Below are positions 20,545-36,263 of a stretch of DNA of 64,000 nucleotides, in pieces. Position 1 is the first letter of the stretch, and the number at the start of each line of letters is the position of its first letter. The translations under genes and the position numbers were made by a program. The DNA is from Anaerolineae bacterium (GTDB lineage: Bacteria; Chloroflexota; Anaerolineae; VGOG01): assembly GCA_049589355.1 (NCBI GenBank), contig JBAWAP010000434.1, positions 177-64,176 of the forward strand. Reading direction: 5' to 3'. Under the pieces are notes generated by a model. The model worked only from the letters and a program-made list of their open reading frames with translations, had not been told where the DNA came from and did no database searches.

Positions 20545-20573
20545 ATGATAGCATAAAGGAGGATAAAAGTCAA
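20545..20573 (-). promoter_or_regulatory. Sigma70-like promoter of the attenuated aro operon (TTGACT-N17-TATCAT)
   Basis: Minus strand: -35 TTGACT (20573..20568), 17-nt spacer, -10 TATCAT (20550..20545), about 30 nt upstream of the leader peptide ATG. Confidence 0.55.
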
Positions 20574-20582
20574 ACCTGCGTA

Positions 20583-20990
20583 TTAGTTCACGCCAAGAAC
20601 TACCTCGAAATCCCGAGGCGCACTTGTAACACGCTTGCCAGGATCGGGGACTTGTGGCATACCCCCAGTGCCCGATCTGAACCCAGATTGCCACACTGCG
20701 GGTAGAGTTGCCTTGCCGAGATCATCCACTCGTGAGTGGACCTCATCCAGTGCCAACAGCGACCAAAGCATCGGCACCCAGGAAAAGGCGGCCAGGCAGG
20801 CGGTGGGCCAATCGTGGCCGGCCAGCCAGAAGAAGACGACGGCGCAGCCGATCAGCCAGACGAGGAAAGCCGCGGTGCGCAGTGGGCCAGTGAGGGTCAC
20901 TTCGAAAAAGAAGAGGATCACTACCAGGGCGTATCCCAGCCAGGGGGCTGACCAGCGGGGCCAGCGCCGCCACCAGGCATAAGTGGTCAC
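20583..20990 (-). CDS. Hypothetical membrane protein, possibly truncated at its N-terminus by repeat copy 1
   Basis: Hydrophobic ORF (LGYALVVILFFFEVTL..., FLVWLIGCAVVFFWLAG). The start abuts the repeat at 21004. Confidence 0.3.
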   Translation of the reverse strand: MTTYAWWRRWPRWSAPWLGYALVVILFFFEVTLTGPLRTAAFLVWLIGCAVVFFWLAGHDWPTACLAAFSWVPMLWSLLALDEVHSRVDDLGKATLPAVWQSGFRSGTGGMPQVPDPGKRVTSAPRDFEVVLGVN

Positions 20991-21003
20991 CGCCAGGCAG
21001 ATG

Positions 21004-21096
21004 ACAGTGGAAACCCTTGCAAGTCAACCACCAGTATGATGCCCAGCCCGAAAAGCAAGAGCGGGGGGTGTCTTAGACCTCCCGCTTTGGTTTTAG
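21004..21096 (-). repeat. Terminator-promoter repeat, copy 1 (degenerate: -35 and an imperfect hairpin only)
   Basis: aaacccttgcaagtcaaccaccagtatgatgcccagcccgaaaagcaagagcggggggtgtcttagacctcccgctttggtttt aligns with the other copies but lacks the TATAAT half. Confidence 0.6.
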
Positions 21097-21282
21097 CCCC
21101 TTTTCAGCGAGGCCAGAATTGGACCTGAAAGGATCGGGATTGAAATCATCCGATTGCACCACAAGAACAGGCCGGCGATACCCTGGCTCTGAACCCACTG
21201 GCTCAGGCAGCGTGGCCCACCAGATCTCCCCGCGCCGAATCACCACGTTTCCCCCACAGAAGCCAGTTGGATGTGTACCCAA
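21073..21282 (-). pseudogene. MazF/PemK-family toxin fragment, C-terminally truncated with tail ...KREV supplied by repeat copy 1
   Basis: RRGEIWWATLPEPVGSEPGYRRPVLVVQSDDFN is the MazF N-terminal half. The ORF ends inside the repeat, only about 69 aa against ~110 for MazF. Confidence 0.55.
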
Positions 21283-21473
21283 GCTGGGTCCATAGCCGAG
21301 GGCTCAGTAGCATACACTCGGTTGAGCGTCTCCGTGATCTCGCTGCGCTGGTGTGCAGTCACGTAAGCAGCCACCGCAGCCGTATAGAGCTCACTGAGCG
21401 ACATACCGAGCGTTTGCGCGAGTTGCTCAGCCGCTTCCGAGATCGGACGGGGAATAGCGATCTCTGCTTTCAT
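21240..21473 (-). CDS. Putative RHH/MazE-like antitoxin
   Basis: MKAEIAIPRPISEAAEQLAQTLGMSLSELYTAAVAAYV..., small, directly upstream of and overlapping the MazF fragment. Confidence 0.5.
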   Translation of the reverse strand: MKAEIAIPRPISEAAEQLAQTLGMSLSELYTAAVAAYVTAHQRSEITETLNRVYATEPSAMDPAWVHIQLASVGETW

Positions 21474-21919
21474 CAGAACTTATCCTTTGGCTTGTCAAGT
21501 TCAGCAAGATCGGGCGGGGGGTGTTCACCCACCGCATACAGTATTCGCCGTAGATTGACTAACCCCGCCTTGTTTAAGTGTAGTGTCTCAACGGTAGCAC
21601 GGCCTGTTGGTGTCATCCCAATAATGAGCGTGCAGTCATCGTTCCACGCAAAATGCTCAGCCCATTGCTGACGACGGGGATGGTAAAGGGGAACAATTCG
21701 CCCACTGCCTGGGTCCATCCCCTCCGTTTTGGTATATTTGTGGTTGTTGCAACTTTGACAAGACAGTGCCAGATTATCCAGCGTAGTTTGTCCACCTTGA
21801 CTTTGGGGAATGATATGCTCAATGGAAAATGGTTGGTTCGTGAAGCGTAGCTGGCTATGGCAATATTCACAGCAGCCGCGCTCGACTGATAACGATGCGT
21901 TTCTGTTGGGCGGTAACAC
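21473..21919 (-). CDS. HNH endonuclease
   Basis: CEYCHSQ...IEHIIPQSQGG...NLALSCQSCNNHK is an HNH motif. Confidence 0.7.
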   Translation of the reverse strand: MLPPNRNASLSVERGCCEYCHSQLRFTNQPFSIEHIIPQSQGGQTTLDNLALSCQSCNNHKYTKTEGMDPGSGRIVPLYHPRRQQWAEHFAWNDDCTLIIGMTPTGRATVETLHLNKAGLVNLRRILYAVGEHPPPDLAELDKPKDKF

Positions 21920-21924
21920 GTTTG

Positions 21925-22329
21925 CTAGACAACGGCCGGCACCTGTATCCCCAAGTCTTCCATTAAGGCGGGCAGCGAAGTCTGGCGCAGGCGGGCCAAC
22001 TCAGCCAGGTACTCAAGACGCTGCACATTTAGCTCACCAAGCTGGTCTGTCAGGTGCATCAACTCCTCACGCTCACCAGGCGTAAGGGTTTCTTCCTGGC
22101 GTTTGGCCACTAATGCGTCACACCGTGCTTGAAGGTTAACCGGAAATGCACTCTGATTGATTTTGAGCAAAAGTTCAGCCTCTCTACGGGGCAGGACGGG
22201 AGCCCGCCGTCGCGCCAGGAGCCTAACGATTTGTTGGGCAAACTGTTCCAGGTCCGGTAAACTCAACTGCTCAACAGCTTTCAATAGTTCATCAGAAGGT
22301 AACTCCATTGTAATTTGAATAGTGGGCAT
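21925..22329 (-). CDS. Hypothetical protein in a cassette with the HNH nuclease
   Basis: Start MPTIQITMELPSDELLKAVEQLS at ATG 22329 with AAAGGGGAAAGGA RBS. I do not recognise a family. Confidence 0.4.
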   Translation of the reverse strand: MPTIQITMELPSDELLKAVEQLSLPDLEQFAQQIVRLLARRRAPVLPRREAELLLKINQSAFPVNLQARCDALVAKRQEETLTPGEREELMHLTDQLGELNVQRLEYLAELARLRQTSLPALMEDLGIQVPAVV

Positions 22330-22430
22330 ATCCTTTCCCCTTTCAGAAGGTTTATTATGCAAGAATCTCGTCCGTCTAGCAAACTTGCCACAACGGGGCA
22401 GGGTAGGCATGATCAGGAACTTCTTAATCG

Positions 22431-22643
22431 CTATATCTCTGTCAGTTCTGGAACATGTTCGTCCTCATACTTTTCAATCAGCACGCCAATCACTTCCATC
22501 AACGAGGCTAAGGGATGACTTTCATTCTCACCTACTATGTCAATCAAAGTGTCAAGTAAAGCCACGAGCCGTTGGTATTCACTCTCAGCATGAGGAACAA
22601 ATACGACTGGTTCTAGCAATGTGCATCTGCCGTTCCTACTCAT
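22431..22643 (-). CDS. HigA-like antitoxin N-terminal fragment (no HTH domain)
   Basis: ...SEYQRLVALLDTLIDIVGENESHPLASLMEVIGVLIEKYEDEHVPEL resembles the N-terminal region of HigA-family antitoxins and ends before any HTH. Confidence 0.35.
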   Translation of the reverse strand: MSRNGRCTLLEPVVFVPHAESEYQRLVALLDTLIDIVGENESHPLASLMEVIGVLIEKYEDEHVPELTEI

Positions 22644-22695
22644 TTATGTACGTGTTATTGCTCTCTGGATTTGCTTTTCACGTTGCGCCTAATTA

Positions 22696-22711
22696 GTGGA
22701 CATCTGTCCAC
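22696..22711. promoter_or_regulatory. Perfect palindrome GTGGACA-TC-TGTCCAC in the leader of the cassette, candidate operator
   Basis: 7-bp inverted arms with a 2-nt spacer, between the copy-2 promoter and the HigA-like gene. Confidence 0.3.
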
Positions 22712-22758
22712 CTAGCCACCCGATTTGGGATACTAGGCAGACATTGTAATGCGCAAGC

Positions 22759-22899
22759 AAGGCTTTTGCGGAAACCCGTGGGACTTCCCTTGTTGCTCGT
22801 TATTATACAGCAGAAGCCCTTGCAGGTCAACCACCAGTACGATGGCTAGTCCGAAAAGCAAAAGCGGGGGGCTTCTTAGACCTCCCGCTTTGCTTCTAC
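22759..22899 (-). repeat. Terminator-promoter repeat, copy 2
   Basis: Minus strand: hairpin (GAAGCAAAGCGGGAGG ... CCCCCCGCTTTTGCTTTTC) then TTGACC (22830..22825), N17, TATAAT (22807..22802). Supplies the KREV-stop tail of gene 22876..23337. Confidence 0.8.
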
Positions 22900-23337
22900 G
22901 TTGTCCAATTCCAAAAGGCGCACGTCTTCCAGATCCTGTTCCCGTCCCGCCGCCCGTTTGGAAGCTATCAAATCCACTTTGGATACCACGTAGAACTCTT
23001 GTCCTTGATACATCATCGTTTCACGGCGTTGCCACGCGGTCTCGAAGACTAAGCCGGGGGTACTCGTTTGTACATCAATCCGCACCCAATCTTTGAAAAC
23101 CGTGATTTCGTGGGCCAGTATGCCTTGCGCAGAAGTAAGCGCGGCAGTGCCGAATCTTTCTTCTAGCAGTGCGTCCAATAGACGTTGGGCATTCTCTGGT
23201 GTGGCTTCAATGAGAATGTCCAGATCAAAGGTCACGCGGGGCACGCCGTGTAACACCGCCGCGATACCGCCGATAACAACATACTTGACGTTATGCCGGT
23301 GTAAGGACGCGAACACGCCCTGCAAGCGGTTGAGCAT
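22876..23337 (-). CDS. Nucleotidyltransferase-like protein (MNT/AbiEii-like fold)
   Basis: MLNRLQGVFASLHRHNVKYVVIGGIAAVLHGVPRVTFDLDILIEATPENAQRLLDAL. ATG 23337. C-terminus ...EAKREV is encoded by repeat copy 2. Confidence 0.45.
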   Translation of the reverse strand: MLNRLQGVFASLHRHNVKYVVIGGIAAVLHGVPRVTFDLDILIEATPENAQRLLDALLEERFGTAALTSAQGILAHEITVFKDWVRIDVQTSTPGLVFETAWQRRETMMYQGQEFYVVSKVDLIASKRAAGREQDLEDVRLLELDNVEAKREV

Positions 23338-23494
23338 CTTTCTGCTCCACAATATGCGGGTTCACGGTCAATATCAAATCCGTGAAGAGGCACAATAGTT
23401 CCATACGCTCAGCCAGGGGCAATGCTTGAAACCAACGAGCTTTGGCTTCAATGGTCTCTTCCTGATAGCTGTGAGAAATAGCTTGATCTATCAT
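23291..23494 (-). CDS. Small hypothetical protein, possible partner of the nucleotidyltransferase
   Basis: MIDQAISHSYQEETIEAKARWFQALPLAERMELL..., ATG 23494 with GGAG 9 nt upstream. First gene after the copy-3 promoter. Confidence 0.35.
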   Translation of the reverse strand: MIDQAISHSYQEETIEAKARWFQALPLAERMELLCLFTDLILTVNPHIVEQKDAQPLAGRVRVLTPA

Positions 23495-23532
23495 CCACGC
23501 AACTCCGACACGAAGCATATCCTACTTGATGA

Positions 23533-23765
23533 AAGGCTTTTTGCAGAAGCCCGCGGGACAATCCCTCGTTACTCGTATTATACAGCAGAAGCCCTTGCAG
23601 GTCAACCACCAGTGCGATGCCCGGCACACAAGCAAAAGCGGGAGGCGCTTACTACCTCCCGCTCTGCTTCTAGACAAGTGTGCAGTTACCGTTCGGCTGA
23701 TGGTTCATCAGGCATGTCCTGAGCCCCGCTCCATAGCCACCTGCTTGGCGAACGGATCGCAGAGT
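23533..23765 (-). repeat. Terminator-promoter repeat, copy 3 (long form with ~95-nt 3' extension shared with copy 4)
   Basis: Minus strand: 17-bp hairpin (GAAGCAGAGCGGGAGG-TAGTAAGCG-CCTCCCGCTTTTGCTT), then TTGACC (23605..23600), N17, TATAAT (23582..23577). The extension holds a CTGATG-GTT-CATCAG hairpin. Confidence 0.8.
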
Positions 23766-23791
23766 GAGCTGTTAGCCGCCCTTACCCATCC

Positions 23792-26614
23792 TTATACTCC
23801 CACCGCACACCGCGCCAGAATATCCTGAATGTCCCCCGGCTGCCGCGCCACCGCCCACCGCCAGCGGCCAAATCCGCCGTGGGCGTTGACGGCGTTTACC
23901 CACTCGTCCAGAAACCGCCGTTTGACGCGATCTTGCTCGGTATCCCGCCCCTTGGTCTCCAGAATCAGCATCTCCTCAGTGTTCAGGTGGATCAGGAAAT
24001 CAGGTCGGTATTTGCGCACTACGCCACGATAGATGTACAGCACTTCAAAGCCCAGGTGGTCGTTCTTGACCCACGCCACGACCCCCGGATGGTGGTCCAG
24101 CACATACGCATCGGAGGCCTCCCACGTGCTGTCATACACGCAGAAGTTGATGTGAGACTTTTTCGTCCTCTCGCACGGCTTGCCGGTGTACCAGGTGCTC
24201 ATATCGCCGGTGGCGCGGATGGGATGGTCGCGGTCAAAGACCGGCTCCAGCCGCTCGGTGTTCTCAAAACGCACGGCATCCCAGATGTGCTGCACCACTT
24301 TGGTCATATTGAGCGTGATGATCAGGCGGCGACGCAGCTCGTCCTGGTAGAACAGCGGCGGGTGGATGGCAATCTTGTCGGAGTGGATAAACTGCTCCAC
24401 CAGGCGCACCAACTGCGCCAGCAGCAGCTCCTTGCTCCCCTTCCAGGTGTGCTGCATCTGGTCGTAGACATCGCGCGCCGTCACAAAGACGATGCGCTGG
24501 GTACGGAACTCGCGCGCCAGCCGTTCGAGTTCGATGCGATCCACCTGCGTTACGTCCGGCTTGCCTTCTAGGATGGGGGCCAGTTCGGCCACTTGCGCGG
24601 TGCGGGCGGCGTCCAGTTCCAGCGGCTGGACGCGGTCCCAGTCCAGCGTCAGGGTGGGCCGGTACACGTGGTCAATGCGCACGACGTTGGGCCAGCGAAT
24701 CTCGTACTGCGACTTGGCCGGGTCTGGTTCGATGGGGGTCTTGGGCTGCGGCGGAGGCGGGACAACTCCCTCGCCGCCCTCGTGCGGCAGGAAGGTGAAC
24801 GGCACGCCAAAGATGTTGACGTACTCAGGATCGAACAGGCCGGTCTCCGGGTTGACCTCGTAGGTGGTGCGACGCAGCCCCCGCCCGACCACCTGCTCGC
24901 ACAGGAGTTGGCTGGTAAAGGCGCGCAGGCCCATGATGTGCGTCACTGTCTTGGCATCCCACCCCTCACTGAGCATCCCCACCGAGATGACGCTCTGCAC
25001 CTTCTCACCGGGCTGGCCAACACGCCCAATCGTGTCCACCATCTGGCGCAGCAACTCCGCCTGTTCGCTCTTGGTCAGCTTGCGGACCGGCGCGGCGTCC
25101 TCCTCTTCCGCTTCGTCTTCCGGGTTGAGTTCCACCGGGACAAGCGGCTCTTCCCGCGCCTCGGCCTCGGCCAGCACCTTTGAATCAATGTGCAGGATGC
25201 GCTCCGGGTCACACAGTTCGTCAATGTGCACTTTCTTGTGGTCAAAGGCGTGTTTGACCCGCGCCGCCGTCTCGGTGCGGTTGCCGACGGTGATCATCAC
25301 CGGCGGGGTGGGCAGGCCGGCTCTCTCCCATTCCCGCGCCGTCTCGCGCCAATCGTAGCCCAGCAGGTAATAGCCGTTGAGCACCAGGTCGGGCAGCGGC
25401 TCGTGCGCTCGGGCGCGGCGGTTCAGGTCGTCCTTCACCTCCGGGTCGTTGTAGATGTGGTAGAGGCGCGATTTGTAGGTTTTGGCGTCCGGCACGGCGT
25501 CGTCGCGCACCACCACGCGCGGCGTCTTGACCAGGCCCGACTCGATGGCGTCGTTCAGCCCGAAATCGCTCACAATCCAGCCGAACAGCGCCTCCTCTGT
25601 GGTCTGTTTGCCGGACGGCGAAAACGGCGTGGCGGAGAAGTCGTAGCAGGTCAGAATCCCCCGCGTGCGATGCAGGCGGTCCAGGCCGCCGACCCAGATG
25701 GTGGCTTCCTGGGCGCTGTCCTTCATGTCGCGCGTGCGCAGGTACTTGCCGACGGCTTCCACGTTCACGCGCCAGGCGTGGTGCGCTTCGTCGTTGATGA
25801 CCAATAGATTGCGGGCCTTGGCCATCTCACCCAGTATCTCGCGGGTGTAGGCCTCGTCGCTCTTGGCCCCGCGCTTGTCCACGCTGCGCTTGCGGGCGAT
25901 CTGCTCCTCACTCTCCCAGTTGAGGACGTGCCAGTTGCGCACCAGCACCCGCCCCTGGCGCAGTTTGTCCAACAGCGCCGAGGGCACGATGCGAAACGCC
26001 TCGTAGTAGTTGCCCGGCGCCGACGGTATCAGCACCGCCAGGCGGCTTTTGACCGTCAGCCCAGGCGCGATGACCAGCACGTTTTTGGCAAAGCGGGCGT
26101 CCTGCGGATAAGTGACCTTGTTCAGGATGTGCCAGGCGATGGTCATGGCCATGACGATGGTCTTGCCGGCGCCGGTGGCCATCTTGCAGCAGCGGCGCAG
26201 AAACTCCCCGCCGTCGGAGGGGATGTCAATGCCCACCCGCTCGGCGGCGGGCGCTTCGGTCAGCCAGATCAGCGTCTCCACCGCTTCCAGTTGGCAGAAG
26301 AAAAAACGCCGCGCCTCGTATTCCTCCGGGTCGGTCCAGTGCTCCAGCAGGCGACTGGTGATGCTGCTCACGCCGGGATAGCCCGCCTCGCGCCAGGCCT
26401 TGACGCGCGGGCGAATCTGGTTGACCAGCGGGATTGGCACAAAGATGCCGGGATCGTCGAAGGCTTTGGAACTCTCCGAGGCCACGACGTACCCCGCCGG
26501 GCGGCGGCCTTCTTCCAACGAGAACAGGCGCGTCTCGCGGTCGTAGCGCCAGTGGCGCGTCGGCTCCGCGTAGGGCGTGTTGATGATGAGGCGGTCAATA
26601 GTGGTCTGGGCCAT
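23792..26614 (-). CDS. res: Type III restriction enzyme, Res subunit (SF2 helicase)
   Basis: 940 aa. DEAH box VINDEAHH, ATP-binding MATGAGKT, N-terminus typical of type III Res. Confidence 0.85.
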   Translation of the reverse strand: MAQTTIDRLIINTPYAEPTRHWRYDRETRLFSLEEGRRPAGYVVASESSKAFDDPGIFVPIPLVNQIRPRVKAWREAGYPGVSSITSRLLEHWTDPEEYEARRFFFCQLEAVETLIWLTEAPAAERVGIDIPSDGGEFLRRCCKMATGAGKTIVMAMTIAWHILNKVTYPQDARFAKNVLVIAPGLTVKSRLAVLIPSAPGNYYEAFRIVPSALLDKLRQGRVLVRNWHVLNWESEEQIARKRSVDKRGAKSDEAYTREILGEMAKARNLLVINDEAHHAWRVNVEAVGKYLRTRDMKDSAQEATIWVGGLDRLHRTRGILTCYDFSATPFSPSGKQTTEEALFGWIVSDFGLNDAIESGLVKTPRVVVRDDAVPDAKTYKSRLYHIYNDPEVKDDLNRRARAHEPLPDLVLNGYYLLGYDWRETAREWERAGLPTPPVMITVGNRTETAARVKHAFDHKKVHIDELCDPERILHIDSKVLAEAEAREEPLVPVELNPEDEAEEEDAAPVRKLTKSEQAELLRQMVDTIGRVGQPGEKVQSVISVGMLSEGWDAKTVTHIMGLRAFTSQLLCEQVVGRGLRRTTYEVNPETGLFDPEYVNIFGVPFTFLPHEGGEGVVPPPPQPKTPIEPDPAKSQYEIRWPNVVRIDHVYRPTLTLDWDRVQPLELDAARTAQVAELAPILEGKPDVTQVDRIELERLAREFRTQRIVFVTARDVYDQMQHTWKGSKELLLAQLVRLVEQFIHSDKIAIHPPLFYQDELRRRLIITLNMTKVVQHIWDAVRFENTERLEPVFDRDHPIRATGDMSTWYTGKPCERTKKSHINFCVYDSTWEASDAYVLDHHPGVVAWVKNDHLGFEVLYIYRGVVRKYRPDFLIHLNTEEMLILETKGRDTEQDRVKRRFLDEWVNAVNAHGGFGRWRWAVARQPGDIQDILARCAVGV

Positions 26615-27020
26615 CGGTTCCCTCGCTCTCTACCGCCGCGCTCACCTGCTCTTCTGCCCAGCGGCGCACGTCTGCGACCACACTCGCCGCATCGGATAGC
26701 GAGGTGAGTTCGATCTCCATATCGTCGTAACGGAAGGTGACGGCAAAGGGATTCAAGCGGCGCAGTTGACCCTCCGGGACCGGCAACACGATGCCGCGCT
26801 CGCTCAACAATCGCGCCAGTTTGACCAGGTCGTGTACGCGCTCGAACTCGATCCGGCGCGAGAACAAGACCGCCTTGAGCGATTTTTCCACGGCCTGTTG
26901 GGCGTGGAAACAGATCATCGAAATGTGAACTTCTGGCCTTGCTCTGAGCGCGTCGAAAGCCTGGATGTCGCGGTCTGCCAGACGCAGCGACCGCCAAGCT
27001 TCTTCAATGTGCGGCTTCAT
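26595..27020 (-). CDS. HEPN-domain protein (toxin-like) embedded between mod and res
   Basis: ...ICFHAQQAVEKSLKAVL...RVHDLVKLARLL is HEPN-like. Overlaps the MNT gene by 17 nt and the res start by 20 nt. Confidence 0.7.
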   Translation of the reverse strand: MKPHIEEAWRSLRLADRDIQAFDALRARPEVHISMICFHAQQAVEKSLKAVLFSRRIEFERVHDLVKLARLLSERGIVLPVPEGQLRRLNPFAVTFRYDDMEIELTSLSDAASVVADVRRWAEEQVSAAVESEGTDGPDHY

Positions 27021-27324
27021 ATAAGGCTCTCCCTTCCTTGCGCGCCCAATACAGCACGGTACCCGGCACCTGGCTGCGTCGCCGGTATTCTGCTTCCGAA
27101 TACACCAGCACGTCCACCCCCAAGCCGATATGGCTTACCGCTTCGTGCAGGCGGATCATCTCGGCATACTGGTCGGGTACTTCCGGCTCAATTACCATGA
27201 GGTCCAGGTCCGAACCGGCGTCGGCGTCGCCGCGCCCATAGGAACCGAACAGGATCACGCGGCTGGGTTGCGCCGCCGCGACGATGCGCTTCACGACTTC
27301 TTGCAGGGTTTGCTCGTCAATCAT
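27004..27324 (-). CDS. Minimal nucleotidyltransferase (MNT), partner of the HEPN protein
   Basis: GSYGRGDADAGSDLDLMV is the NTase motif GS..RG......SD.DL. Start overlaps the mod stop. Confidence 0.75.
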   Translation of the reverse strand: MIDEQTLQEVVKRIVAAAQPSRVILFGSYGRGDADAGSDLDLMVIEPEVPDQYAEMIRLHEAVSHIGLGVDVLVYSEAEYRRRSQVPGTVLYWARKEGRALYEAAH

Positions 27325-29915
27325 GCTTCCACCTCCAACACCTTGAGGCTCTCAATGCCCCGGTCGTCCACGATCTTGATGGCGATGCGCCGGTGCTTCC
27401 CCGGCTCGAAGGGCAGCGAGACCGTGCCGCGATAGGCTTCGATCAGGTCGGGGTCGATCTCGGCCTTGAGGTTGCGGGCCAGTTTCGCCCAGCCTTCGTT
27501 TTCGCCCGCTATTGGGAAAAAGACCTGGCGCGGAAAGAGGCTGCGCCCATCGTAATCCGTATCCAGCAGCCACACGGCGATCTTGTCCGCGCCGCCGGAT
27601 TCGATGTCGCCGGTCTTGGTGTTGTAATAGTCAAAGCCGTGGACGGAGACGCGAACCTTGCCCTTGTCCGCGCCTTTGGCGAGGCGTTCCACTTGCACAT
27701 CGGGCTGGCCGATGAGCCAGAACGATTCGTTGCTGGCGCGTTTCTTCTTCAGGTCGTCGGTCAGCAGGTCGGCGTTCATCTGGGCCTTGAGCAGGGTGAC
27801 GCCGGGCCAGCGGGTCTCGTCAATGTCTTTGGCCGCTTCGGGGTCGAACTGGAAGGCGGCAAAGATGATCAGTTTGGGCCGGGGGACCAGGGTCTGCGCT
27901 TCTTCCAGCGCGCTGGCTACCTGGCGCTGTTCCAGGGGGGCGTGTTCCGGGCCAAAGGAGACCACGGTGCGCATCGGGTTGTAGGCGGGGGCGTCCTCGC
28001 GCACCGAATCGGCGCCCTCCGCGCTGGGGCGGGTCTCGCCGTCGGCGTGCAGCCAGCGGCAGCCGGGCAGCGGCTCCAGGCGGGCAAAGCGGATGTGCTG
28101 GCCAGCCTTGCCGCGCAGGCCGGTCTTGAGCAGTTCGTCGCGCCATTCGGCCTGGCGCAGCGTCTCGCCGGAGCGGGCCACCGAGGTGTCGGCTCCCTCA
28201 CCCCCGGCCCCTCTCCCAGGGGGCGAGGAGAGCAGCAGGTCGTCCACCGATTGTACCGCCGGGGCGGGAACGGCCTCCACGGTGAAGGGGCCGCTGACGC
28301 GGGTGATCTTGCGGTCCACGGTGGGCTGATCGTAGAGCGTTTCCTGGGCGGGCGGCTCGTCGTTGGCGATGGATTTGAGGGTGACGTGGGGCACGGTCTT
28401 GTACTCGAAGCCGCTGCCCACGCCCTCTTGTGGGTGGGCTAACTCGTAGTAGTCGTAGACCGCCGTCATCAGGCGGGTGCGGGCCAGGGTGAGGGCCACG
28501 CGCGAGGTGTCGCAGGTGATCCAGCGCCGGCCCCACTGTTCGGCCACGTAGGCTGTGGTGCCGCTGCCGCAAGTCGGATCAAACACCAGGTCGCCGGGGT
28601 CGGTGGTCATCAGGAGACAGCGCTCGATGACTTTCTGGGCGGTCTGAACCACATATCGCAAGTCCATTTCGCCCCGAGTGTCATCCCACAGGTTTGTAAT
28701 CGTAATCATCGGGAAATCGTCGAAATACCTGATGAACCCTATACGTCTCTCGGTTGCGTCAATCCGATTGGCCTCTATCAACCGCCGGATTCCATCCTCA
28801 TTGGTCTTCCATCCACCGGAGCTCAATGTAAAGGTCTTTCCACCAAACTCGATGGGAAACCTGCTTTTCGGCCCTCCGCTTTGGCTGTTCAACGCATGCA
28901 GTCCAAATAGCTTGGCGCCTGCCGGGATTAGTTCGGGATTCCGCCTCTCTGAAGCCGTCAAGTTTCGTCTTGTGCCATCGGGCAACTCAACGTTTTGATA
29001 GTTCGACAATCCGCTCTTCGATATCGCTTTCGGCTCATAGAGTTGACGATACTTCAGCAACCCCTGGTCCTTGGCGTACCAGACAAGATAGTCACCGACT
29101 TCATCCAAGCCCTGGGACATAAGCGCCCCTGTTTTCCTAAAGTGGATCAAGCGAACGAAATTCCCCACCCCAAACACCTCATCCATAAGGTTCCGGACAA
29201 GATGCACGTTCTCGTCGCTGATCTGCACAAACACGCTGCCGGATTCGGTGAGCAGTTCGCGGGCCAGCAGCAGGCGGTCGCGCAGGTAGCTCAGGTAGGA
29301 GTGGATGCCCAGCTCCCAGGTGTCGCGGAAGGCGCGGATCTGCTCCGGCTCGGCGGTCAGGTCTTCGTCCTTGCCGTCCTTCACGTCGCGCTTGTTGACA
29401 AAGGGCTGAAAGTTGGAGCCGTACTTGATGCCGTAGGGCGGGTCAATGTAGATCATCTGCACCTGCCCGCCCAGCCCCTCTTTTTCCAGCAAGCTGTTCA
29501 TCACCAGTAAACTGTCGCCAGCCACCAGGCGGTTGGACCAGCCGTGCTTGTGGCGGTAGAACTCGATGGCCTGGCGGATGGGCGGGTTCTCCTGGGGCGT
29601 CTGGAACAGGGAGAGCTGCATCGGGGTGTCGGGGTCGGGCTGGCGGCGGACGGCCTCGACGATGGTACGGGGGTCAATGCGCTCGTGGACATGGAGCGAG
29701 ACGGTGGGCACCTCGAAGGAGGTGTGCTCGTCCTTGCCCGCCCATTGCAGTTGCGGGTCGAGGTGGGGGTCGTGGGCGTAGGTTTGCTGCTGCCCGGCGT
29801 CGGGGTCGGTGTCAGGCGTCACCAGGCCCACGGGCGGGTTGTTGACCCGCTCCTTGTCGGCGTGCTGGTAGGATTCAATCGGGCGTTTGGTTTTGGTTGA
29901 TTTTCGTCGTGCCAT
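27321..29915 (-). CDS. mod: Type III DNA methyltransferase, Mod subunit (N6-adenine/N4-cytosine class), with a low-GC target-recognition domain
   Basis: IYIDPPYG (motif IV DPPY), FDPTCGSGTTAYVAEQWGRRWITCD (motif I). ATG 29915 with GGGGAG RBS. The central region (about 28690..29230) drops to roughly 50% GC. Confidence 0.85.
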   Translation of the reverse strand: MARRKSTKTKRPIESYQHADKERVNNPPVGLVTPDTDPDAGQQQTYAHDPHLDPQLQWAGKDEHTSFEVPTVSLHVHERIDPRTIVEAVRRQPDPDTPMQLSLFQTPQENPPIRQAIEFYRHKHGWSNRLVAGDSLLVMNSLLEKEGLGGQVQMIYIDPPYGIKYGSNFQPFVNKRDVKDGKDEDLTAEPEQIRAFRDTWELGIHSYLSYLRDRLLLARELLTESGSVFVQISDENVHLVRNLMDEVFGVGNFVRLIHFRKTGALMSQGLDEVGDYLVWYAKDQGLLKYRQLYEPKAISKSGLSNYQNVELPDGTRRNLTASERRNPELIPAGAKLFGLHALNSQSGGPKSRFPIEFGGKTFTLSSGGWKTNEDGIRRLIEANRIDATERRIGFIRYFDDFPMITITNLWDDTRGEMDLRYVVQTAQKVIERCLLMTTDPGDLVFDPTCGSGTTAYVAEQWGRRWITCDTSRVALTLARTRLMTAVYDYYELAHPQEGVGSGFEYKTVPHVTLKSIANDEPPAQETLYDQPTVDRKITRVSGPFTVEAVPAPAVQSVDDLLLSSPPGRGAGGEGADTSVARSGETLRQAEWRDELLKTGLRGKAGQHIRFARLEPLPGCRWLHADGETRPSAEGADSVREDAPAYNPMRTVVSFGPEHAPLEQRQVASALEEAQTLVPRPKLIIFAAFQFDPEAAKDIDETRWPGVTLLKAQMNADLLTDDLKKKRASNESFWLIGQPDVQVERLAKGADKGKVRVSVHGFDYYNTKTGDIESGGADKIAVWLLDTDYDGRSLFPRQVFFPIAGENEGWAKLARNLKAEIDPDLIEAYRGTVSLPFEPGKHRRIAIKIVDDRGIESLKVLEVEA

Positions 29916-30046
29916 GTTGTGACTCCCCTTTTGTCGGGATGCTAAACGCTGGCGCGAGGGCGGCTGACGGCGGAGTTCAGCGGCGCGGGATGGGACGAGT
30001 AAACATGCCCACACTGAACCCTTGACCGTCGAGATCCCCGATCAGG

Positions 30047-30327
30047 TCTTCATCGTTGCTTGATATTATACAGCAGAAGCCCTTGCAGGTCAACCACCAG
30101 CACAATGCCAGCCCGAAAAGCAAAAGCGGGAGACGCTTACTACCTCCCGCTTTGCTTTTAGACAAGTATGCAGTTACCGTTCGGCTGATGGTTCGTCAGG
30201 CATGTCCTGAGCCTCGCTCCATAGCCACCTGCTTGGGGCATCGCCGCTTTCGGCTAGCAGTTTATCCCCCACGCTTTGGGCGAACGAATCGCAGCGCGTG
30301 GTTTTGAGCGAACGGATCGCAGAAACG
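30047..30327 (-). repeat. Terminator-promoter repeat, copy 4 (long form; the extension carries a 45-nt insertion and a short duplication relative to copy 3)
   Basis: Minus strand: hairpin (AAAAGCAAAGCGGGAGG-TAGTAAGCG-TCTCCCGCTTTTGCTTTTC), then TTGACC (30093..30088), N17, TATAAT (30070..30065). Sits 150 nt upstream of the mod ATG. Confidence 0.8.
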
Positions 30328-30345
30328 CTGGTTACGCCAGTGCCG

Positions 30346-31380
30346 CTAGAACGGTATCTCATTGTCAAGATCGAACCCGCCGGTCTCTTCTCCGGTCACC
30401 TTGGTCAAGCCACGGCTCACCAGCAGATCGTTGAGCGAATCAAGAGCAGCGCCTCCAGCAAAGACGGTAGAAGTGGCAGCGCCCTCTCGCAGCCTCTCGA
30501 GATACGCGTCCGGCAAGTCCTCGATCTCTGCCAGGTGCTCAAGCTTCTTCAGGGCTTCCGCCTCATTCACGGACTGAAGCGTGGCGTCGACTAGGCAGGT
30601 GAGTATTCGCCCTCGCGTCTTGGGCGATGCGACGAGGATTCGAAATACCTCGTGTGCGACCTCTGCGACCGTCTTGCCGTTTGCGTGAAAGCCTTGGTAC
30701 TTGCCAATGAAACCGTAGGGATTGAGACCGCGGATGATCGGGACAATCAACACCCCCCGGCCCAAGGCGTAACCGACTTCCTGGTCAGTCCAATTGCTCT
30801 CTTTGAAGCCCGGCACTAGAACTGCCGCCAGAGCATCCATCGACGCAAGGCCGGCCTCAATCTCATCCTGCCATTCCTTGGTCGGCTCAATGTCCACGTG
30901 GGCCACGAACGCCGAGATACCGTAGTGTCGAAGTGTAGACTGAAGTGCGGCGATCTTCTTCTTGGATGAGGACAGATGACTAATGAAGAGCCGAAAGTGG
31001 TGTTGCTCCCAAAACGTCGCCTCGACCGCGTGACTATCGGGCATTACAGCGTACTCGTGAGGAATCTCGAGTTCGTCGGCAATGCGGAGAATGACGTCAT
31101 CGGGAACGTCCGCGAGAAGTTCCTTCGTGTAGACCCACTTGCTGTTCACGCCTGACGTGGGCTTGGTAACATCAACACCATGGGCTTGCAGGTAGACGTC
31201 GATGTCGGCATACGTCATTCGTGCCTGAAGCTCACGACCGATGCGGTCGACTAGACTCAGACGGCCAAGGTTGTTCAACTGCCCCCCTTCCTGAAGTCGG
31301 CCATCGCGGTAAGACTGCCAGTCACCCCACAGCCCCCGCACAGATCCCGGCGTGCGGTTTTCTCGTACCGGGCTCTTCAC
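30346..31380 (-). CDS. TIR-domain-containing protein with N- and C-terminal domains I do not recognise (defence-associated)
   Basis: Central TIR-like region: FISHLSSSKKKIAALQSTLRHYGISAFVAHVDIEPTKEWQDEIEAGLASMDALAAVLVPGFKESNWTDQEVGYALGRG. GTG start. Located in the cassette island. Confidence 0.55.
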   Translation of the reverse strand: MKSPVRENRTPGSVRGLWGDWQSYRDGRLQEGGQLNNLGRLSLVDRIGRELQARMTYADIDVYLQAHGVDVTKPTSGVNSKWVYTKELLADVPDDVILRIADELEIPHEYAVMPDSHAVEATFWEQHHFRLFISHLSSSKKKIAALQSTLRHYGISAFVAHVDIEPTKEWQDEIEAGLASMDALAAVLVPGFKESNWTDQEVGYALGRGVLIVPIIRGLNPYGFIGKYQGFHANGKTVAEVAHEVFRILVASPKTRGRILTCLVDATLQSVNEAEALKKLEHLAEIEDLPDAYLERLREGAATSTVFAGGAALDSLNDLLVSRGLTKVTGEETGGFDLDNEIPF

Positions 31381-31558
31381 CCGGCTGCACTGGTTGCCTG
31401 CTACGTGGCCCGCTGGCGGTTACCACGACCGGACTTTCCACCGGCTAGCCGTTGACAGCTTCAGGACACACCAGCGCGCGGTTAGTGCAGCGAAATACCT
31501 CATAAGGCGCATCTCCTATTGAAGTTTCGCTTCTCTTGCTTTCGCACGCTCGAAATTG

Positions 31559-31912
31559 TCAGACAAGGTCATAGATTTTAGCGACAGATTCGGCGAAATA
31601 CTCAGCTTCGATGCTAGCACATTTCTTGAAAGCGTTCAAAACAATCACCGCTTTGTCTATATTCTCTGCAAAGCCTTCTGCCGTTGAGTAAAATTGTGCG
31701 ATACCCGTCACCACCATGATTTCTTGACCGAGGAATTTCTCACCGCAATCTCGCTCAAACCAGGATTGTTCGCTAAGTAAACGTTGTCCGAGAGTTGAGT
31801 CATCAAGTGGCTCTGTTTCCTGGAGAATTTGTTTCCAATGCTCACGTGCCCGTTCATAGAGTTCCAAGATGCCGGGATCGCCATTCATCAATGCTTCAAT
31901 TGTCTGCTGCAT
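31559..31912 (-). CDS. Hypothetical 117-aa protein in a low-GC patch, co-cassette with the TIR protein
   Basis: ATG 31912 with GGAGG RBS. About 45% GC. First gene downstream of the copy-5 promoter. Confidence 0.4.
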   Translation of the reverse strand: MQQTIEALMNGDPGILELYERAREHWKQILQETEPLDDSTLGQRLLSEQSWFERDCGEKFLGQEIMVVTGIAQFYSTAEGFAENIDKAVIVLNAFKKCASIEAEYFAESVAKIYDLV

Positions 31913-32156
31913 TTTGCTCCTCCTTATTTGTGTTCTAATCTATGCGAAAAAGCTTAAGCAAGAAGAATTTGCATACTCGTGAAAATCCCCTTTGCTCTGC
32001 CGCTGCTGAGTAATATCTGTAAGGCGTTGATGAACACGCCAACACGGCGATTCCGATGCCGCGCCTGACTGTAGTTGTGCTATATGGCAGGTACTGTAGA
32101 ATTACGGGGGAGAGATACCCAATTCAACGGGAGGCTGCCAGATGATATGACAAAAT

Positions 32157-32276
32157 CAACCTTGTCATTGGTGCTCAACATTATACACCAGAAGCCCTTG
32201 CAGGTCAACCACCGACGATGCCCAGCCCGAAAAGCAAAAACGGGAGGCGATTCAGACCTCCCGCTCTTGCTCTTGA
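32157..32276 (-). repeat. Terminator-promoter repeat, copy 5
   Basis: Minus strand: hairpin (GAGCAAGAGCGGGAGG-TCTGAATCG-CCTCCCGTTTTTGCTTTTC), then TTGACC (32208..32203), N17, TATAAT (32185..32180). Confidence 0.8.
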
Positions 32277-32288
32277 TTATGCCAGTGA

Positions 32289-33248
32289 CTACAACCTGCC
32301 CTCTGTCCCGAAGTATCGTTTCGAGAGAATGATCAAGCCTAGAGTAAGGAGAAGCGGTATTCCAATGAACGCTGCCAAATGCCAACCTTGAAATGGCAGT
32401 CCTTGTAAAGCCTCCATTTCCGTTGGCGCAAACTTCATCCTGGACAAGATGTCGGACAGACTAGACCTGCAAAGGGTTAGAATCGAGGAGGATGTGATCA
32501 AGCCGAAATAGATCACAGAACCCCACCAGGCCCAGGTTCGTAACCTGAATGTGCCCCAGATGAGACAGGCCAAACAGACGATCAAGATGTCAAGTAGAAG
32601 AATCCCCTGAATGTCAACTAGCAAGACGCCAAAAAGCGGAAAGATGCCGTTGAAGAAGATGAGTATGTGCAGCACGATGATGTAGAACAAATACAGAGAA
32701 CACAGTACCAGCACTGGTATCGGGAATCGCTCCACCCAATAGGTCTTCGGGTCTTTGGTCTCAAAGGTCAACCTGACGTTTCGGCTGCGGTAAAACCAAA
32801 TGAGCAATCCTGGGGCGACCAGATAGGACAACGCCAGGACGACGAGCATGATCAGGACAACCGCTAAAGACAGGTCTTTGGCAGTCACTGCCACAAATAA
32901 GAACGCGACGATCAAAGGCACACCGACCACAAGCCAGAATCCGAGCAAGGCCAAAGCGAGTGTTCTGGCCCAACGGCGTATTTTCAGGTGTCCGTAACCC
33001 AGAGGAATGAACACGATGGCGATAAGATAATAACCCACGATTTGACTGGCAATGTTGCCAAACATGAAAGAGCCGAATCCAAAGCCCTCATAGTGAAACC
33101 GGCCACCCTCAGAGAAGAGGTAGAAGCAATACATTTCAAGTGGCCCCAACAAAGCGGCAGCTATGCCAATGAGTAGTAGAAGACCTCCGATGACAGCAAG
33201 AATCGGACGGCGATCTCGATAAACCGCATCGTTTATAGCTTCTTTCAT
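32289..33248 (-). CDS. Polytopic membrane protein, unknown function
   Basis: Start MKEAINDAVYRDRRPILAVIGGLLLLIGIAAALL at ATG 33248. About 8 predicted TM segments. The ORF-track start at 33425 overlaps the upstream gene. Confidence 0.5.
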   Translation of the reverse strand: MKEAINDAVYRDRRPILAVIGGLLLLIGIAAALLGPLEMYCFYLFSEGGRFHYEGFGFGSFMFGNIASQIVGYYLIAIVFIPLGYGHLKIRRWARTLALALLGFWLVVGVPLIVAFLFVAVTAKDLSLAVVLIMLVVLALSYLVAPGLLIWFYRSRNVRLTFETKDPKTYWVERFPIPVLVLCSLYLFYIIVLHILIFFNGIFPLFGVLLVDIQGILLLDILIVCLACLIWGTFRLRTWAWWGSVIYFGLITSSSILTLCRSSLSDILSRMKFAPTEMEALQGLPFQGWHLAAFIGIPLLLTLGLIILSKRYFGTEGRL

Positions 33249-33271
33249 TGCTCTGGCTTCTTTCGTATTCG

Positions 33272-34288
33272 CTACGCTGCCCGCGGCCGCAGCCTTTGGG
33301 CCACCAGCCCAACCGCCGGGCCGAAAGCCAGTATTGCCAAGCCGACTGCCAGCAGGATCAAGGGCTGTCCGGTCTGGCCGTGGCTCAACCGCCATGGCCA
33401 GAAGACGCCGTACTCGATGCCCCACATCGTCCCCAGGCAGAGGAGCCCACCAACGGCCAGCAACGCCGCCCGCCGTGCTGGCGGTCCGGTCACGAAGCCG
33501 TATATCAACCCGCCATAGATCAGACCCAGCGGCCCAACCAGTAGCCCAACGTCCAGACGATTGATGGGAGGGTTTGAGGCCCAGGAGACCACCACCAGGC
33601 TGAGGATCATAGTCGTGCTCAGCCCGGCCAGTCCGCCCAGCAACGGCCCACGCCAGCCGACTGCCCCCAGCGCTGCCCCTAACAGCAACAACAGGGCCAT
33701 CATGATCAGCACGTCAATCACCGGGGACACGAGGTACGGCAGGTCGTCAGCGGCAACCATTAGCGCAAACACGATGACCATGACCGCGGTTCCGACCCAG
33801 GTGTATCCCCAAAGCGGCAGCCGCCGCGCCACGGCGACCACGCCGCCGATCACCAAGATCAGCGCGGCCAGCACCAAGGCGCCGATGCAGACCATCATCC
33901 CTCCCGTAATGATGCCGGGGCTGTAATGGATGCGCGTCGGGCCGCCGATCACCAACCGGCTCAGGGGCGCTCTGAGCAGTAAGGAAATGGCGATGCTCAG
34001 ACCGAGGAGCACCGGCGGCAATGCTGCCAGCAATGCGTCTCGCCTCGTCGCCCCGCCGTGCACCTGCTTTAACTCCCGGCCCACCTCGGCCGGATCACCC
34101 AATGCTTCCATCGCCTTTTCCATGCTTGCCTCCTCCGTAAGCCCATGCAGCATCAGCCAGCGGGCCTTATCTTCAAAGTGACCACTGATCTCAGCCACGA
34201 TCTCCTGCCGCCGGGCCTCTTCGAGCCGGCCCAGCGCGGCCTCCATGGTCATTAGATAGCTATGGCTCAAATCCATCTCCAAACCCAC
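33272..34288 (-). CDS. Membrane protein with a DUF1700-like N-terminal domain and a polytopic C-terminal region
   Basis: N-terminus ...EISGHFEDKARWLMLHGLTEEASMEKAMEALGDPAEVGRELKQVHG, then about 8 hydrophobic segments. Confidence 0.45.
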   Translation of the reverse strand: MGLEMDLSHSYLMTMEAALGRLEEARRQEIVAEISGHFEDKARWLMLHGLTEEASMEKAMEALGDPAEVGRELKQVHGGATRRDALLAALPPVLLGLSIAISLLLRAPLSRLVIGGPTRIHYSPGIITGGMMVCIGALVLAALILVIGGVVAVARRLPLWGYTWVGTAVMVIVFALMVAADDLPYLVSPVIDVLIMMALLLLLGAALGAVGWRGPLLGGLAGLSTTMILSLVVVSWASNPPINRLDVGLLVGPLGLIYGGLIYGFVTGPPARRAALLAVGGLLCLGTMWGIEYGVFWPWRLSHGQTGQPLILLAVGLAILAFGPAVGLVAQRLRPRAA

Positions 34289-34692
34289 CTGGCAATGTTC
34301 AGACCGCTACAAAGTCTTATTGCTTTTTCGACGCTGTATTGACACATGCAGGTACTTACATTGCATGGACTCGGACATAGCTTCTCCGTACGTAGCAGCT
34401 TTTCAAGAGATGGTAAGGCTTGTTTATCTCCAATCTCCCCCAAAGCCCATATTGCCTGGTTTCTCTCTTCAAAGGTATGTCGATCTGAATTTGCATGTGC
34501 AATCAACGCTTCGACACAATCGCCTCCGAATTCCTGACGAGCCTCGCGGCAAGCAGCTCTGACGTCGGAACTGATCCAGTGCATTGTCAGCCATAGGACA
34601 AAAGCTCCGATTACAACGATGGCTATCAAACTGTATAGAATGACCCTTCTCCATTCAACACCACGTCTCTGAGAACCTTCCCTTTTCTGCAT
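34267..34692 (-). CDS. HEAT/PBS-lyase-repeat protein with an N-terminal TM anchor
   Basis: MQKREGSQ... at ATG 34692 with GGAGG RBS. TM segment VILYSLIAIVVIGAFVLWL. HEAT motif NQAIWALGEIGDKQALPSLEKLL. Confidence 0.45.
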   Translation of the reverse strand: MQKREGSQRRGVEWRRVILYSLIAIVVIGAFVLWLTMHWISSDVRAACREARQEFGGDCVEALIAHANSDRHTFEERNQAIWALGEIGDKQALPSLEKLLRTEKLCPSPCNVSTCMCQYSVEKAIRLCSGLNIARWVWRWI

Positions 34693-34757
34693 GATCTGCC
34701 TCCTTGTCGTTTTGAAGTGAGCGCCTTCCCAATCCACCAGTTTCCCAATCTACCAAT

Positions 34758-35543
34758 TTACCAGCCTGGCTGCGGCGGTGGGCCAGCGTCTTCGGGGATG
34801 GGCGGACCATCAGGTAGGTTGTGCAGGTAATCGCAGGAGACGAATTTCACGTCTTCCCAAACGTACCCCTCGGCCTCAAAGGTAAGAATGTCCTTGATCC
34901 AGCGTTTCTGACCATCCTCCAGGGCGTAGATGTGAGGGCTGCCCTCACACTTAAGGAGCACGTGGATGGGGCGGCCTTTCTCGAATTTCTCCAGGAAGCT
35001 GTCATCAACAACGTGCACCTGATCCCAGCGGTAACCGAAAAACTCAAAAGCATCCAGGCTGCTAATCCACCGTAGCTTGTTGTCCTCCAGGACGAATATA
35101 TCCGAGCCGCTGCCCTTGAGCACCAGACCGTCGCGGATGACCAGGGCAGCGGTGTCGGGCATGATGCGGGCCAGGCTGGTGCCGTAGCGGGTGATGGGAA
35201 CGTTAATCACCACCACCAGCACCACCAGGACGAGCAGCAGACGGCCCAGAGTACGGCCCAGGTTGATGCTGGGCAGAGGCGGCGGGGGTACCCAGTCCTC
35301 CTCGCCGGCCCAAGGGTCCCCGGTCGGCTTGGCAGCGGCAATGGGCTCCGGCGCCGAGGGCTCCACCGTTGGCTGCGGGGCCGGGGAAGGCGGCGTCACT
35401 TGATCCAGACCGGGCTCCTCTTGAGCCTGACGGACGGCCTGCCGCTCCAGTAAAGCCTCCAACAGCAGGTCCAGAATTTGCTCTGTGGCGGAAGGCTCCG
35501 TGTTCGCTGATTCGCTGATTCGCTGATTCACTGATTCCCTCAT
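34758..35543 (-). CDS. Membrane-anchored protein with an acidic, Pro-rich N-terminal region; unknown function
   Basis: Internal TM segment LGRLLLVLVVLVVVINV. The N-terminal (ESANxRIS) tail is encoded by an 8-mer tandem repeat at 35497..35528. Confidence 0.4.
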   Translation of the reverse strand: MRESVNQRISESANTEPSATEQILDLLLEALLERQAVRQAQEEPGLDQVTPPSPAPQPTVEPSAPEPIAAAKPTGDPWAGEEDWVPPPPLPSINLGRTLGRLLLVLVVLVVVINVPITRYGTSLARIMPDTAALVIRDGLVLKGSGSDIFVLEDNKLRWISSLDAFEFFGYRWDQVHVVDDSFLEKFEKGRPIHVLLKCEGSPHIYALEDGQKRWIKDILTFEAEGYVWEDVKFVSCDYLHNLPDGPPIPEDAGPPPQPGW

Positions 35544-35553
35544 GAACTGCCTC

Positions 35554-36243: not shown

Positions 36244-36263
36244 TGGATACCTCCGAAATGTTA

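Follow-up and report, generated by a model that had tools for sequence, protein, structure and literature searches.

Gene-less cassettes with promoter activity are known from the superintegrons of Vibrio (PMC11014356) and from integrons of the oral Treponema type (PMC6557892). Integrons are also known in Chloroflexi, and clusters of attC sites lacking integrase (CALINs), for which IntegronFinder requires a minimum of two attC sites that share a strand and lie no more than a few kb apart, are common (PMC4889954). Defence systems have recently been reported in integron cassettes (10.1101/2024.07.02.601719), and a composite of promoter and stem-loop is known from the promoter-early stem-loops (PeSLs) of T4-like phages (PMC2839356, PMC4122927). 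We analysed a stretch of 64,000 nucleotides from an Anaerolineae bacterium (contig JBAWAP010000434.1, positions 177 to 64,176; hereafter the window) in which a short repeat punctuates an array of restriction-modification (R-M), toxin-antitoxin (TA) and other defence genes. We favour the reading, with a probability of roughly 0.55, that this repeat, which carries no gene, combines terminator and promoter as a module within a cassette array of the integron type, part of a decayed chromosomal integron, and that the module is bounded by G|TT junctions when complete and has been shuffled by integrase chemistry, at least historically, together with homologous recombination.

The initial annotation had described five co-oriented copies of the repeat, and a 112-column nhmmer profile, from which all copy coordinates are taken, bears this out. 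A core of about 110 nt is present in five copies on the minus strand, which, as the annotation had said of the flanking genes, is the strand of every gene from about 6.9 to 48 kb. A repeat search and alignment show the same five, the window has no further copies, and all five are clustered within 11 kb of its 64 kb. An invariant 23-mer of the core, GGTGGTTGACCTGCAAGGGCTTC, had five minus-strand matches in the window at up to three mismatches versus none in 100 shuffles. The four full copies are copy 2 (22788-22897, −35 at 22825-22830, −10 at 22802-22807), copy 3 (23565-23671, −35 at 23600-23605, −10 at 23577-23582), copy 4 (30052-30159, −35 at 30088-30093, −10 at 30065-30070) and copy 5 (32167-32274, model positions 2-111, −35 at 32203-32208, −10 at 32180-32185). 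Copy 1 (21004-21094, model positions 3-93) has the hairpin and the −35 hexamer, is truncated at model position 93 without a −10, and is joined to a fragment of a membrane-protein gene.

Read along the gene strand, each full copy consists of a stem GCGGGAGG, a loop and the complementary arm CCTCCCGC, with the stem extended by A/U pairs, followed by UUUUGCUUUU, about 25 nt and TTGACC-N17-TATAAT. By sequence, an intrinsic terminator is recognised as a GC-rich stem-loop that runs into a U tract on the strand being transcribed, as is the case here. The hairpins of copies 2 to 5 fold at −25 to −30 kcal/mol with z scores of −3.7 to −4.9 (copy 5: −29.8 kcal/mol, z −4.85), and that of copy 1 is weaker (−19 kcal/mol, z −0.5). 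The GC-rich hairpin with its U tract and the promoter motif were both claimed in the initial annotation; the motif is exact in copies 2 to 5, which hold the four best promoter-like sites among the 14.5 kb scanned, each scoring 11/12 for match to the consensus. The core is best read as a Rho-independent terminator of bidirectional appearance with, about 25 nt further on, a predicted consensus promoter of the sigma-70 type.

The element contains no protein-coding gene. Clusters of open reading frames (ORFs) spanning it lack a conserved frame and represent read-through, and a recurrent cluster, labelled C2, was rejected as such an artefact. Rfam gave no match at the gathering threshold anywhere in the window. 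The hairpin was rejected as a canonical attC site, being too short at 43 nt and lacking AAC/GTT boxes, and a dif/Xer-like site in the −10 region was discarded on inspection because its arms do not match. A search of the window for tRNA and tmRNA genes, made with an attachment site in mind, found none. Directly upstream of the −35 hexamer is a conserved CTGGTGG that reads GCTGGTGG in some copies, including copy 4 of the window (30093-30100, minus strand). This is the Chi octamer of E. coli, and any suggestion that it marks a hotspot of recombination in this lineage is purely speculative.

The element is not confined to the window. When one genome per species was scanned for an exact pattern, it turned up in six metagenome-assembled genomes (MAGs) of Anaerolineae/Chloroflexota, a metagenome scan added 67 loci, and across 78 related contigs of Anaerolineae/Chloroflexota nhmmer located some 130 copies, co-oriented within each locus and in arrays of two to five. 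None of 2.9 million viral contigs contained a match; we therefore rejected a phage origin, given also that housekeeping bacterial genes flank the array in the window. Pairwise extension placed the bounds of the common core at the foot of the hairpin and just past the −10 hexamer. The motif TTGACN-N17-TATAAT, with a spacing of exactly 17, is kept in 93/102 copies, and 91% of hairpin stem cells are paired across copies. One-sided changes in the stem are mainly from A-U to G-U, which would be tolerated only in the transcript of the gene strand and thus fit a structure used there; covariation in the hairpin was not significant since the copies are too similar. Nearby genes of at least 100 aa favour the strand of the element (327 versus 106 on the other). 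In other contigs the element adjoins histidine-kinase, ABC-transporter, sugar-transporter and gltD-like genes, and cassettes across the arrays encode R-M, TA, TIR, NACHT, HNH and GNAT proteins, a content that is typical of chromosomal integrons. The initial proposal of a portable, predicted terminator-then-promoter unit at cassette boundaries is upheld by this recurrence with different neighbours in many related genomes.

A synteny comparison, which had been suggested from the window alone, found the same upstream genes joined to different downstream cassettes. The 86 junctions with enough flanking sequence fall into 25 upstream and 32 downstream classes in 57 combinations, and the 3' end of the histidine-kinase gene precedes eight downstream classes. 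Position by position, the upstream class is associated with the left arm and loop (z 4-12) and the downstream class with the bases after the −10 (z 3-7), while polymorphic sites in the roughly 80-nt centre are linked to neither flank. Partial copies with only the hairpin or only the promoter also occur, and gene 3' fragments of varied length are kept upstream of the element, among them histidine-kinase fragments of 95-270 nt. Taken together, the chimeric linkage, the partial copies and the retained gene fragments argue for homologous recombination in the centre plus illegitimate events.

The related arrays carry, on the strand of the element, a canonical attC family of about 130 nt that was found by folding the sequence upstream of L'-spacer-R' motifs. 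The fold combines an R box and an L box, the latter bulged by an extrahelical base, with an unpaired spacer and a variable terminal structure; the site at L051 892-1030 (minus strand) folds at −33.5 kcal/mol with all four features, and those in loci L069, L071, L066 and L075 are alike. In an alignment of ten sites, 8/15 predicted pairs have compensatory changes. A covariance model (R1) returned 30 matches at E ≤ 0.01 in the related loci, up to three per locus (L047, L013), and our tally comprises 29 attC-like matches, one partial match in L071 being left out. Earlier scans had been less useful: a crude one reported eight sites, none at the element, and a stricter four-box scan reported none but was too brittle, missing even the true L051 site. 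On the element strand lie 28/29 of the sites, and 12/29 end 51-54 nt before the foot of a hairpin. In these 12 the unit begins right after the attC belonging to the cassette before it, as a gene-less promoter cassette would; after the remaining sites the next gene follows directly. Genes in L047 end 5-17 nt before its attC sites at 4183-4313 and 5258-5391. Sites are also present in L071 and L025/L004, which represent the same chromosomal locus as the window. The interval between site and hairpin is a linker of about 52 nt that starts at G|TTAGGCC and is preceded by L'-spacer-R' motifs. The window keeps it only as a remnant at copy 1, CCGATCCTTTCAGGTCCAATTCTGGCCTCGCTGAAAAGG (21095-21145, minus strand), fused to a truncated mazF; in relatives the linker joins an attC R' site to the hairpin.

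Remnants of integron integrase genes (intI) accompany the element as well. L036 and L047 each contain a hairpin-half copy (model positions 3-59 and 3-65) and, directly after it on the opposite strand, an intI remnant (L036 2456-2698, minus; L047 6280-6441, minus), followed by a sigma-70-like promoter, a region ending in G|TT and a cassette. L082, from the same MAG as L003, has an intI'-Pc-attI platform with a third remnant (10001-10204, plus), and its small array ends in attC, linker and hairpin. These three loci yielded intI only as pseudogenes. The remnants, also seen in proteins P0001-P0035, have an N-terminal SAM-like segment fused to the last ~25 residues (...TTMIYTHVLNRGG.AVRSPLD). With the 55-aa L036 remnant as query we obtained 1448 proteins; the ten full-coverage ones that we examined are 57-92 aa long and have ten different deletion junctions, which suggests recurrent internal deletion of intI.

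Modules with sharp ends extend beyond the core on both sides. Downstream, in the transcribed region after the −10, are leaders of 90-300 nt in several classes, each common to copies with unrelated downstream genes and ending at G|TTAGGC, TTATGC, TTGGGC or TTAGCC. By our own reading, the GTT is exact in 18/29 distinct leader-end junctions and the other 11/29 are one-mismatch variants. Class-1 leaders are common to 11 loci with different downstream genes and have as consensus GTTGTCG...GCACAAC, which forms a conserved but imperfect hairpin, with TATA and lastly G|TT behind it, a foot that appears, from its sequence, to be like an attC L''/L' box plus R'. The leader of copy 5 (32063-32166, minus strand) belongs to this class, with an imperfect hairpin, a 4-nt spacer and a core site degenerated to GTCAGGC, after which an unrelated cassette begins. 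The leader of copy 4 (29959-30051, minus strand) ends, within the 5' untranslated region of the Mod gene, in a palindrome GCCGCTGAAC-TCCGCC-GTCAGCCGCC (29959-29984), which has the half form L'-spacer-R' of attC and forms the same junction in L002, L024 and L031. That of copy 2 (22685-22787, minus strand) combines a class-a start with a class-3 end, ...GATGTCCACTAATTAGGC. All leader junctions in the window are degenerate: GTCAGGC at copy 5, ATTAGGC at copy 2 and GTCAGCC at 29968. Class-a leaders (for example at window positions 22740-22790 and 23530-23570, minus strand) begin with GAGCAACAAGGG and have a pair of small hairpins, GGGTTTCCGCAAAAGCCC and GCGGAAGGATTCCGT, both conserved. Within the latter lies GATTCCGT, a motif that occurs again in the attI region next to the intI remnants of L082 and L036.

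Upstream of the hairpin, some copies carry a module that we call U2, about 190 nt between stop codon and hairpin with an internal direct repeat (CTGCGATCCGTTCGCTCGAAA / CTGCGATTCGTTCGCCCAAAG). It could be aligned in nine copies with different upstream genes and recurs after unrelated genes in at least nine loci. The initial annotation had called copies 3 and 4 long forms, rightly: their extra modules of about 105 and 180 nt lie 5' of the hairpin on the gene strand, that is, 3' on the plus strand. In copy 4, U2 (30160-30337, minus strand) is non-coding, starts directly after GCGTAAC and keeps the internal direct repeat; in copy 3 a short form with an internal deletion (23672-23775, minus strand) starts after GGCTAAC. 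U2 has no significant fold (z −1.35), and Rfam run in E-value mode on 30030-30360 gave only chance microRNA matches (E > 5). We rejected U2 as a decayed attC, for which the R''-like start (GGCTAAC / GCGTAAC) was the only support.

According to the reading that we favour, the complete module, as found in relatives, would start at the G|TT crossover point of the attC of the preceding cassette and continue through the linker of about 52 nt, the hairpin, the promoter and the transcribed leader of 90-300 nt. Its putative end is the attC-like foot of the leader, made up of an L''/L'-like imperfect hairpin, a short spacer and G|TTRRRY, after which unrelated gene cassettes start. To judge from sequence, the module would stop read-through from the upstream cassette and restart transcription for the next, and distal cassettes would thereby be expressed independently of a single Pc promoter. 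It may have spread, at least in the past, by integron-integrase recombination at G|TT junctions. Homologous recombination within the nearly invariant centre of about 80 nt would then produce the chimeric copies, and illegitimate deletions would account for truncated copies and for fusions of genes with the hairpin. The initial interpretation thus stands in part: the unit is real and portable, whereas the integron context, namely the attC sites, the G|TTRRRY-like junctions and the intI remnants in relatives, had been missed.

Several observations weigh against this reading. The window has no attC match at E ≤ 0.01, the best one obtained with R1 with filters off having E 0.45, and nhmmer found none; with neither attC nor a recombinase there, the integron reading rests on the relatives. 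Leaders do not match R1 and their ends are unpaired in single-sequence folds. An alignment of leaders with the attI regions beside intI remnants looked convincing by eye, and this homology was dropped when it failed a shuffle test (z ≤ 2.5, not significant). U2 has no match to the attC hidden Markov model, and the R''-like box GAGCAAC pairs with R' through AAC/GTT only. Several copies directly abut the ends of genes (the histidine kinase, a 378-aa gene and a nucleotidyltransferase) with no attC or linker between. Pfam analysis of 143 representative neighbouring proteins revealed no recurrent recombinase among the 25 families listed, families matched by a single protein being mostly left off that list; phmmer with approximate XerD, IntI1, Cre, Hin and Tn3 resolvase queries gave one match only, in L036. 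The sample itself is biased, as the retrieval pattern for loci required an intact promoter, and short-read assemblies may mis-join at repeats, which could make the combinations seem more numerous than they are. Independent samples do share identical junctions (L009/L072/L076 and L040/L065/L078).

The layouts around the intI remnants allow a different origin, which we regard as doubtful: each copy would be the remnant boundary of a unit integron after deletion of intI, with the leader as an attI-type site. The original unit would have had an array-end terminator, a convergent intI, the Pc promoter and attI, and the array would consist of mini-integrons in a row, every one of which has a promoter and a point of cassette insertion to itself. 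The order of hairpin-half copy, opposite-strand intI remnant, sigma-70-like promoter, G|TT region and cassette in L036 and L047 agrees with this proposal, as does the platform of the same layout in L082, whose array ends in attC, linker and hairpin; it is common to find intI remnants whose internal deletions differ in many ways, which fits progressive loss; and class-2 leaders have in common with the attI region of L082 and L036 a motif GATTCCGTATA with G|TT after it. On the other hand, there are only three such platforms, their promoter sequence is unlike that of the element, their similarity to leaders did not reach significance, class-1 leaders look more like attC than attI, and the element is bounded upstream by a G|TT junction in the fashion of a cassette. 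We have the same doubts about a bolder version, by which terminator, promoter and attI-like site, bounded by G|TT, would form a mini-platform that lacks integrase, is mobile and behaves as a cassette, so that arrays would be chains of self-expressed mini-integrons, each opening a further point for cassette insertion and supplied in trans with integrase from elsewhere in the genome. It is also possible, though we judge it unlikely, that no integrase chemistry was involved and that a PeSL-like module spreads and shuffles cassettes purely by RecA-dependent recombination, homology-facilitated illegitimate recombination and transformation, with attC sites as coincidental residents of a hotspot. PeSLs provide the precedent (PMC2839356, PMC4122927), and transformation-driven shuffling of cassettes has been reported in chromosomal integrons (PMC12614218). 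Polymorphisms of the core centre that are unlinked to either flank, partial copies with varied break points, the retained histidine-kinase 3' fragments (95-270 nt), genes fused to the hairpin and a window free of attC and intI all agree with such exchange. Homology-driven exchange alone, however, leads one to expect neither the fixed distance of 51-54 nt between attC and hairpin at 12/29 sites nor leaders that end sharply at G|TTRRRY nor intI remnants adjoining half-copies.

Two simpler explanations fare worse. That all copies in the window lie in one 11-kb locus between core genes, with copy 5 directly after the conserved 378-aa membrane-protein gene, could indicate that a native terminator and promoter between this gene and the aromatic amino-acid operon underwent local tandem duplication and has no special mobility. 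The comparative data largely refute this idea, which we consider very improbable: in other contigs the element sits beside histidine-kinase, ABC-transporter, sugar-transporter and gltD-like genes, it occurs in 57 junction combinations, and the operon has a different promoter of its own. Hardly credible, in our opinion, is a non-autonomous transposable element, be it a miniature inverted-repeat transposable element (MITE), a repetitive extragenic palindrome or bacterial interspersed mosaic element (REP/BIME) or a Correia-like element, carrying promoter and terminator by chance. Such an origin would suit a short intergenic repeat with a hairpin, and Correia elements also carry promoters and terminators (PMC2649163). 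Yet the repeat has no terminal inverted repeats and no target-site duplications, its single hairpin is at one end, its edges are the hairpin foot and the position just after the −10, there is no transposase nearby, and its copies are few and clustered in each genome rather than dispersed at high number. We accordingly do not class it as an insertion sequence or a MITE.

Under the favoured reading of a decayed integron, the array of the window, which has neither attC nor intI, is probably an eroded, frozen derivative in which attC sites have been lost, copy 1 and mazF are truncated and cassettes keep their own promoters. No recombinase, neither a tyrosine recombinase nor IntI, was found among the window proteins. 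The arrangement of a complete integron, with intI divergent from the cassettes, Pc and attI, is absent from the window, and without a detectable attC site it does not qualify as a CALIN. The attC model matches best, though not significantly (9.6 bits, E 0.45), at 22218-22242 (minus strand), where GCCCAACAAA-N-CGTTAGGC inside a 161-aa ORF resembles an R''/R' pair with the interior missing.

The array lies between genes for membrane proteins (the 378-aa protein, a Pfam HAAS-domain protein and a weak Yip1-like match) on one side and a shikimate/aromatic amino-acid operon, with its own promoter at 20545-20573, on the other. All features described here are on the minus strand. The stop codon of the gene for the conserved 378-aa protein (32289-33425) precedes the modelled core of copy 5 by 14 nt and the GC-rich stem by about 25 nt, and this gene is followed by different cassettes in L007, L054, L052 and L023. 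After copy 5, the first cassette (30346-31912) consists of a 117-aa ORF (31559-31912) and a gene for a TIR-domain protein (30346-31380; Pfam TIR_2, 5.6e-13). It is followed, beyond copy 4, by a Type III R-M cassette (23792-29950; Pfam N6_N4_Mtase, NTP_transf_2, HEPN and ResIII) with Mod at about 27321-29950 and Res at 23792-26614. Nested between mod and res is an MNT (27004-27324) / HEPN (26595-27020) pair, and the order MNT-HEPN-res is also seen in L080 and L081. Between copies 3 and 2 lies a cassette with a 75-aa ORF and a DUF6036 nucleotidyltransferase gene (22876-23518), which recurs with an identical junction in L009, L039, L043, L047, L067, L072 and L076. The last block (21073-22643) has a 70-aa ORF, the 161-aa ORF, an HNH nuclease gene (21473-21919), a 77-aa ORF and the truncated MazF gene (21073-21282). 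The MazF-like ORF is considered truncated because it matches only profile positions 1-33 of 109. It ends in KREV-stop in copy 1, just as the nucleotidyltransferase gene (22876-23337) ends in KREV-stop in copy 2; both of these gene ends, noted in the initial annotation, are confirmed and fall inside the left arm of the hairpin. At the edge of the array, a 3' fragment of a membrane-protein gene (20583-21005), which is intact in L004 and L025 where it adjoins homologues of window 34017-36721, is the scar of an illegitimate deletion or rearrangement. Close relatives differ greatly in array content, since in L022 (a 3.2-kb metagenome contig) the entire variable locus, from the stretch lying upstream of chorismate mutase as far as the window 34768 homologue, takes up only about 2.5 kb. 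The defence genes of the window (Type III R-M with nested HEPN/MNT, TIR, HNH) fit the reports of defence systems in integron cassettes cited above.

The element bears on how cassettes are expressed in chromosomal integrons when they are far from Pc or in clusters without integrase. This Anaerolineae lineage appears to use a standardised spacer after many cassettes that would insulate and express each of them and would also give recombination some 80 nt of identity to act on. If our reading is correct, regulatory cassettes reach a distant phylum, an integron array has a route to outlive the loss of its attC sites and integrase, and the element is a compact natural insulator part.

Among systems of other kinds, the minimal mobile elements of Neisseria (PMC3082526, PMC1538595) likewise exchange cassettes between conserved flanks by homologous recombination, and Correia elements are likewise repeats bearing promoters and terminators. 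Both differ from the element in organism and sequence, and the terminal inverted repeats and target duplications of Correia elements are absent from it. Group IIC-attC introns with outward promoters (PMC3001079) are also mobile non-cassette sequences at attC sites that give downstream cassettes a promoter, but the element has no intron RNA structure or reverse transcriptase and is located after attC, not within it. PeSLs resemble it as composites of about 100 bp, sigma-70 promoter plus stem-loop terminator, that flank accessory ORFs, in their case in hyperplastic regions, and in the chimeric pattern of their copies, recombination between PeSL copies explaining the indels and swaps. In contrast to PeSLs, the element is on a bacterial chromosome, has no viral matches and no sequence relation to them, is associated with attC sites and intI remnants, and has its hairpin upstream of the −35 rather than inside or overlapping the promoter; mini-circles are a feature of PeSLs. 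With sedentary chromosomal integrons and CALINs the locus shares its fixed position on the chromosome, a co-oriented array of cassettes for TA, R-M and defence and, in relatives of the window, a homogeneous attC family of about 130 nt with intI pseudogenes, whereas cassettes can have up to four genes and about 6 kb and many junctions are formed by the element instead of attC.

The closest counterparts are the gene-less promoter cassettes, and because these have already been described, the initial statement that the repeat belongs to no described family was too strong as to its kind. Like them, the element is a non-coding unit between gene cassettes of an integron-type array, bounded by putative integron recombination junctions, and has a predicted sense-strand promoter that could drive the downstream cassette. 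Unlike them, it joins a strong predicted intrinsic terminator to the promoter, and its own 3' site is non-canonical, undetected by the attC model of the lineage, the attC sites of the window being gone. What appears to be new is a single standardised terminator-plus-promoter sequence family that is present several times per array, is conserved across several species, starts at a fixed 52 nt after attC and persists after attC has been lost.

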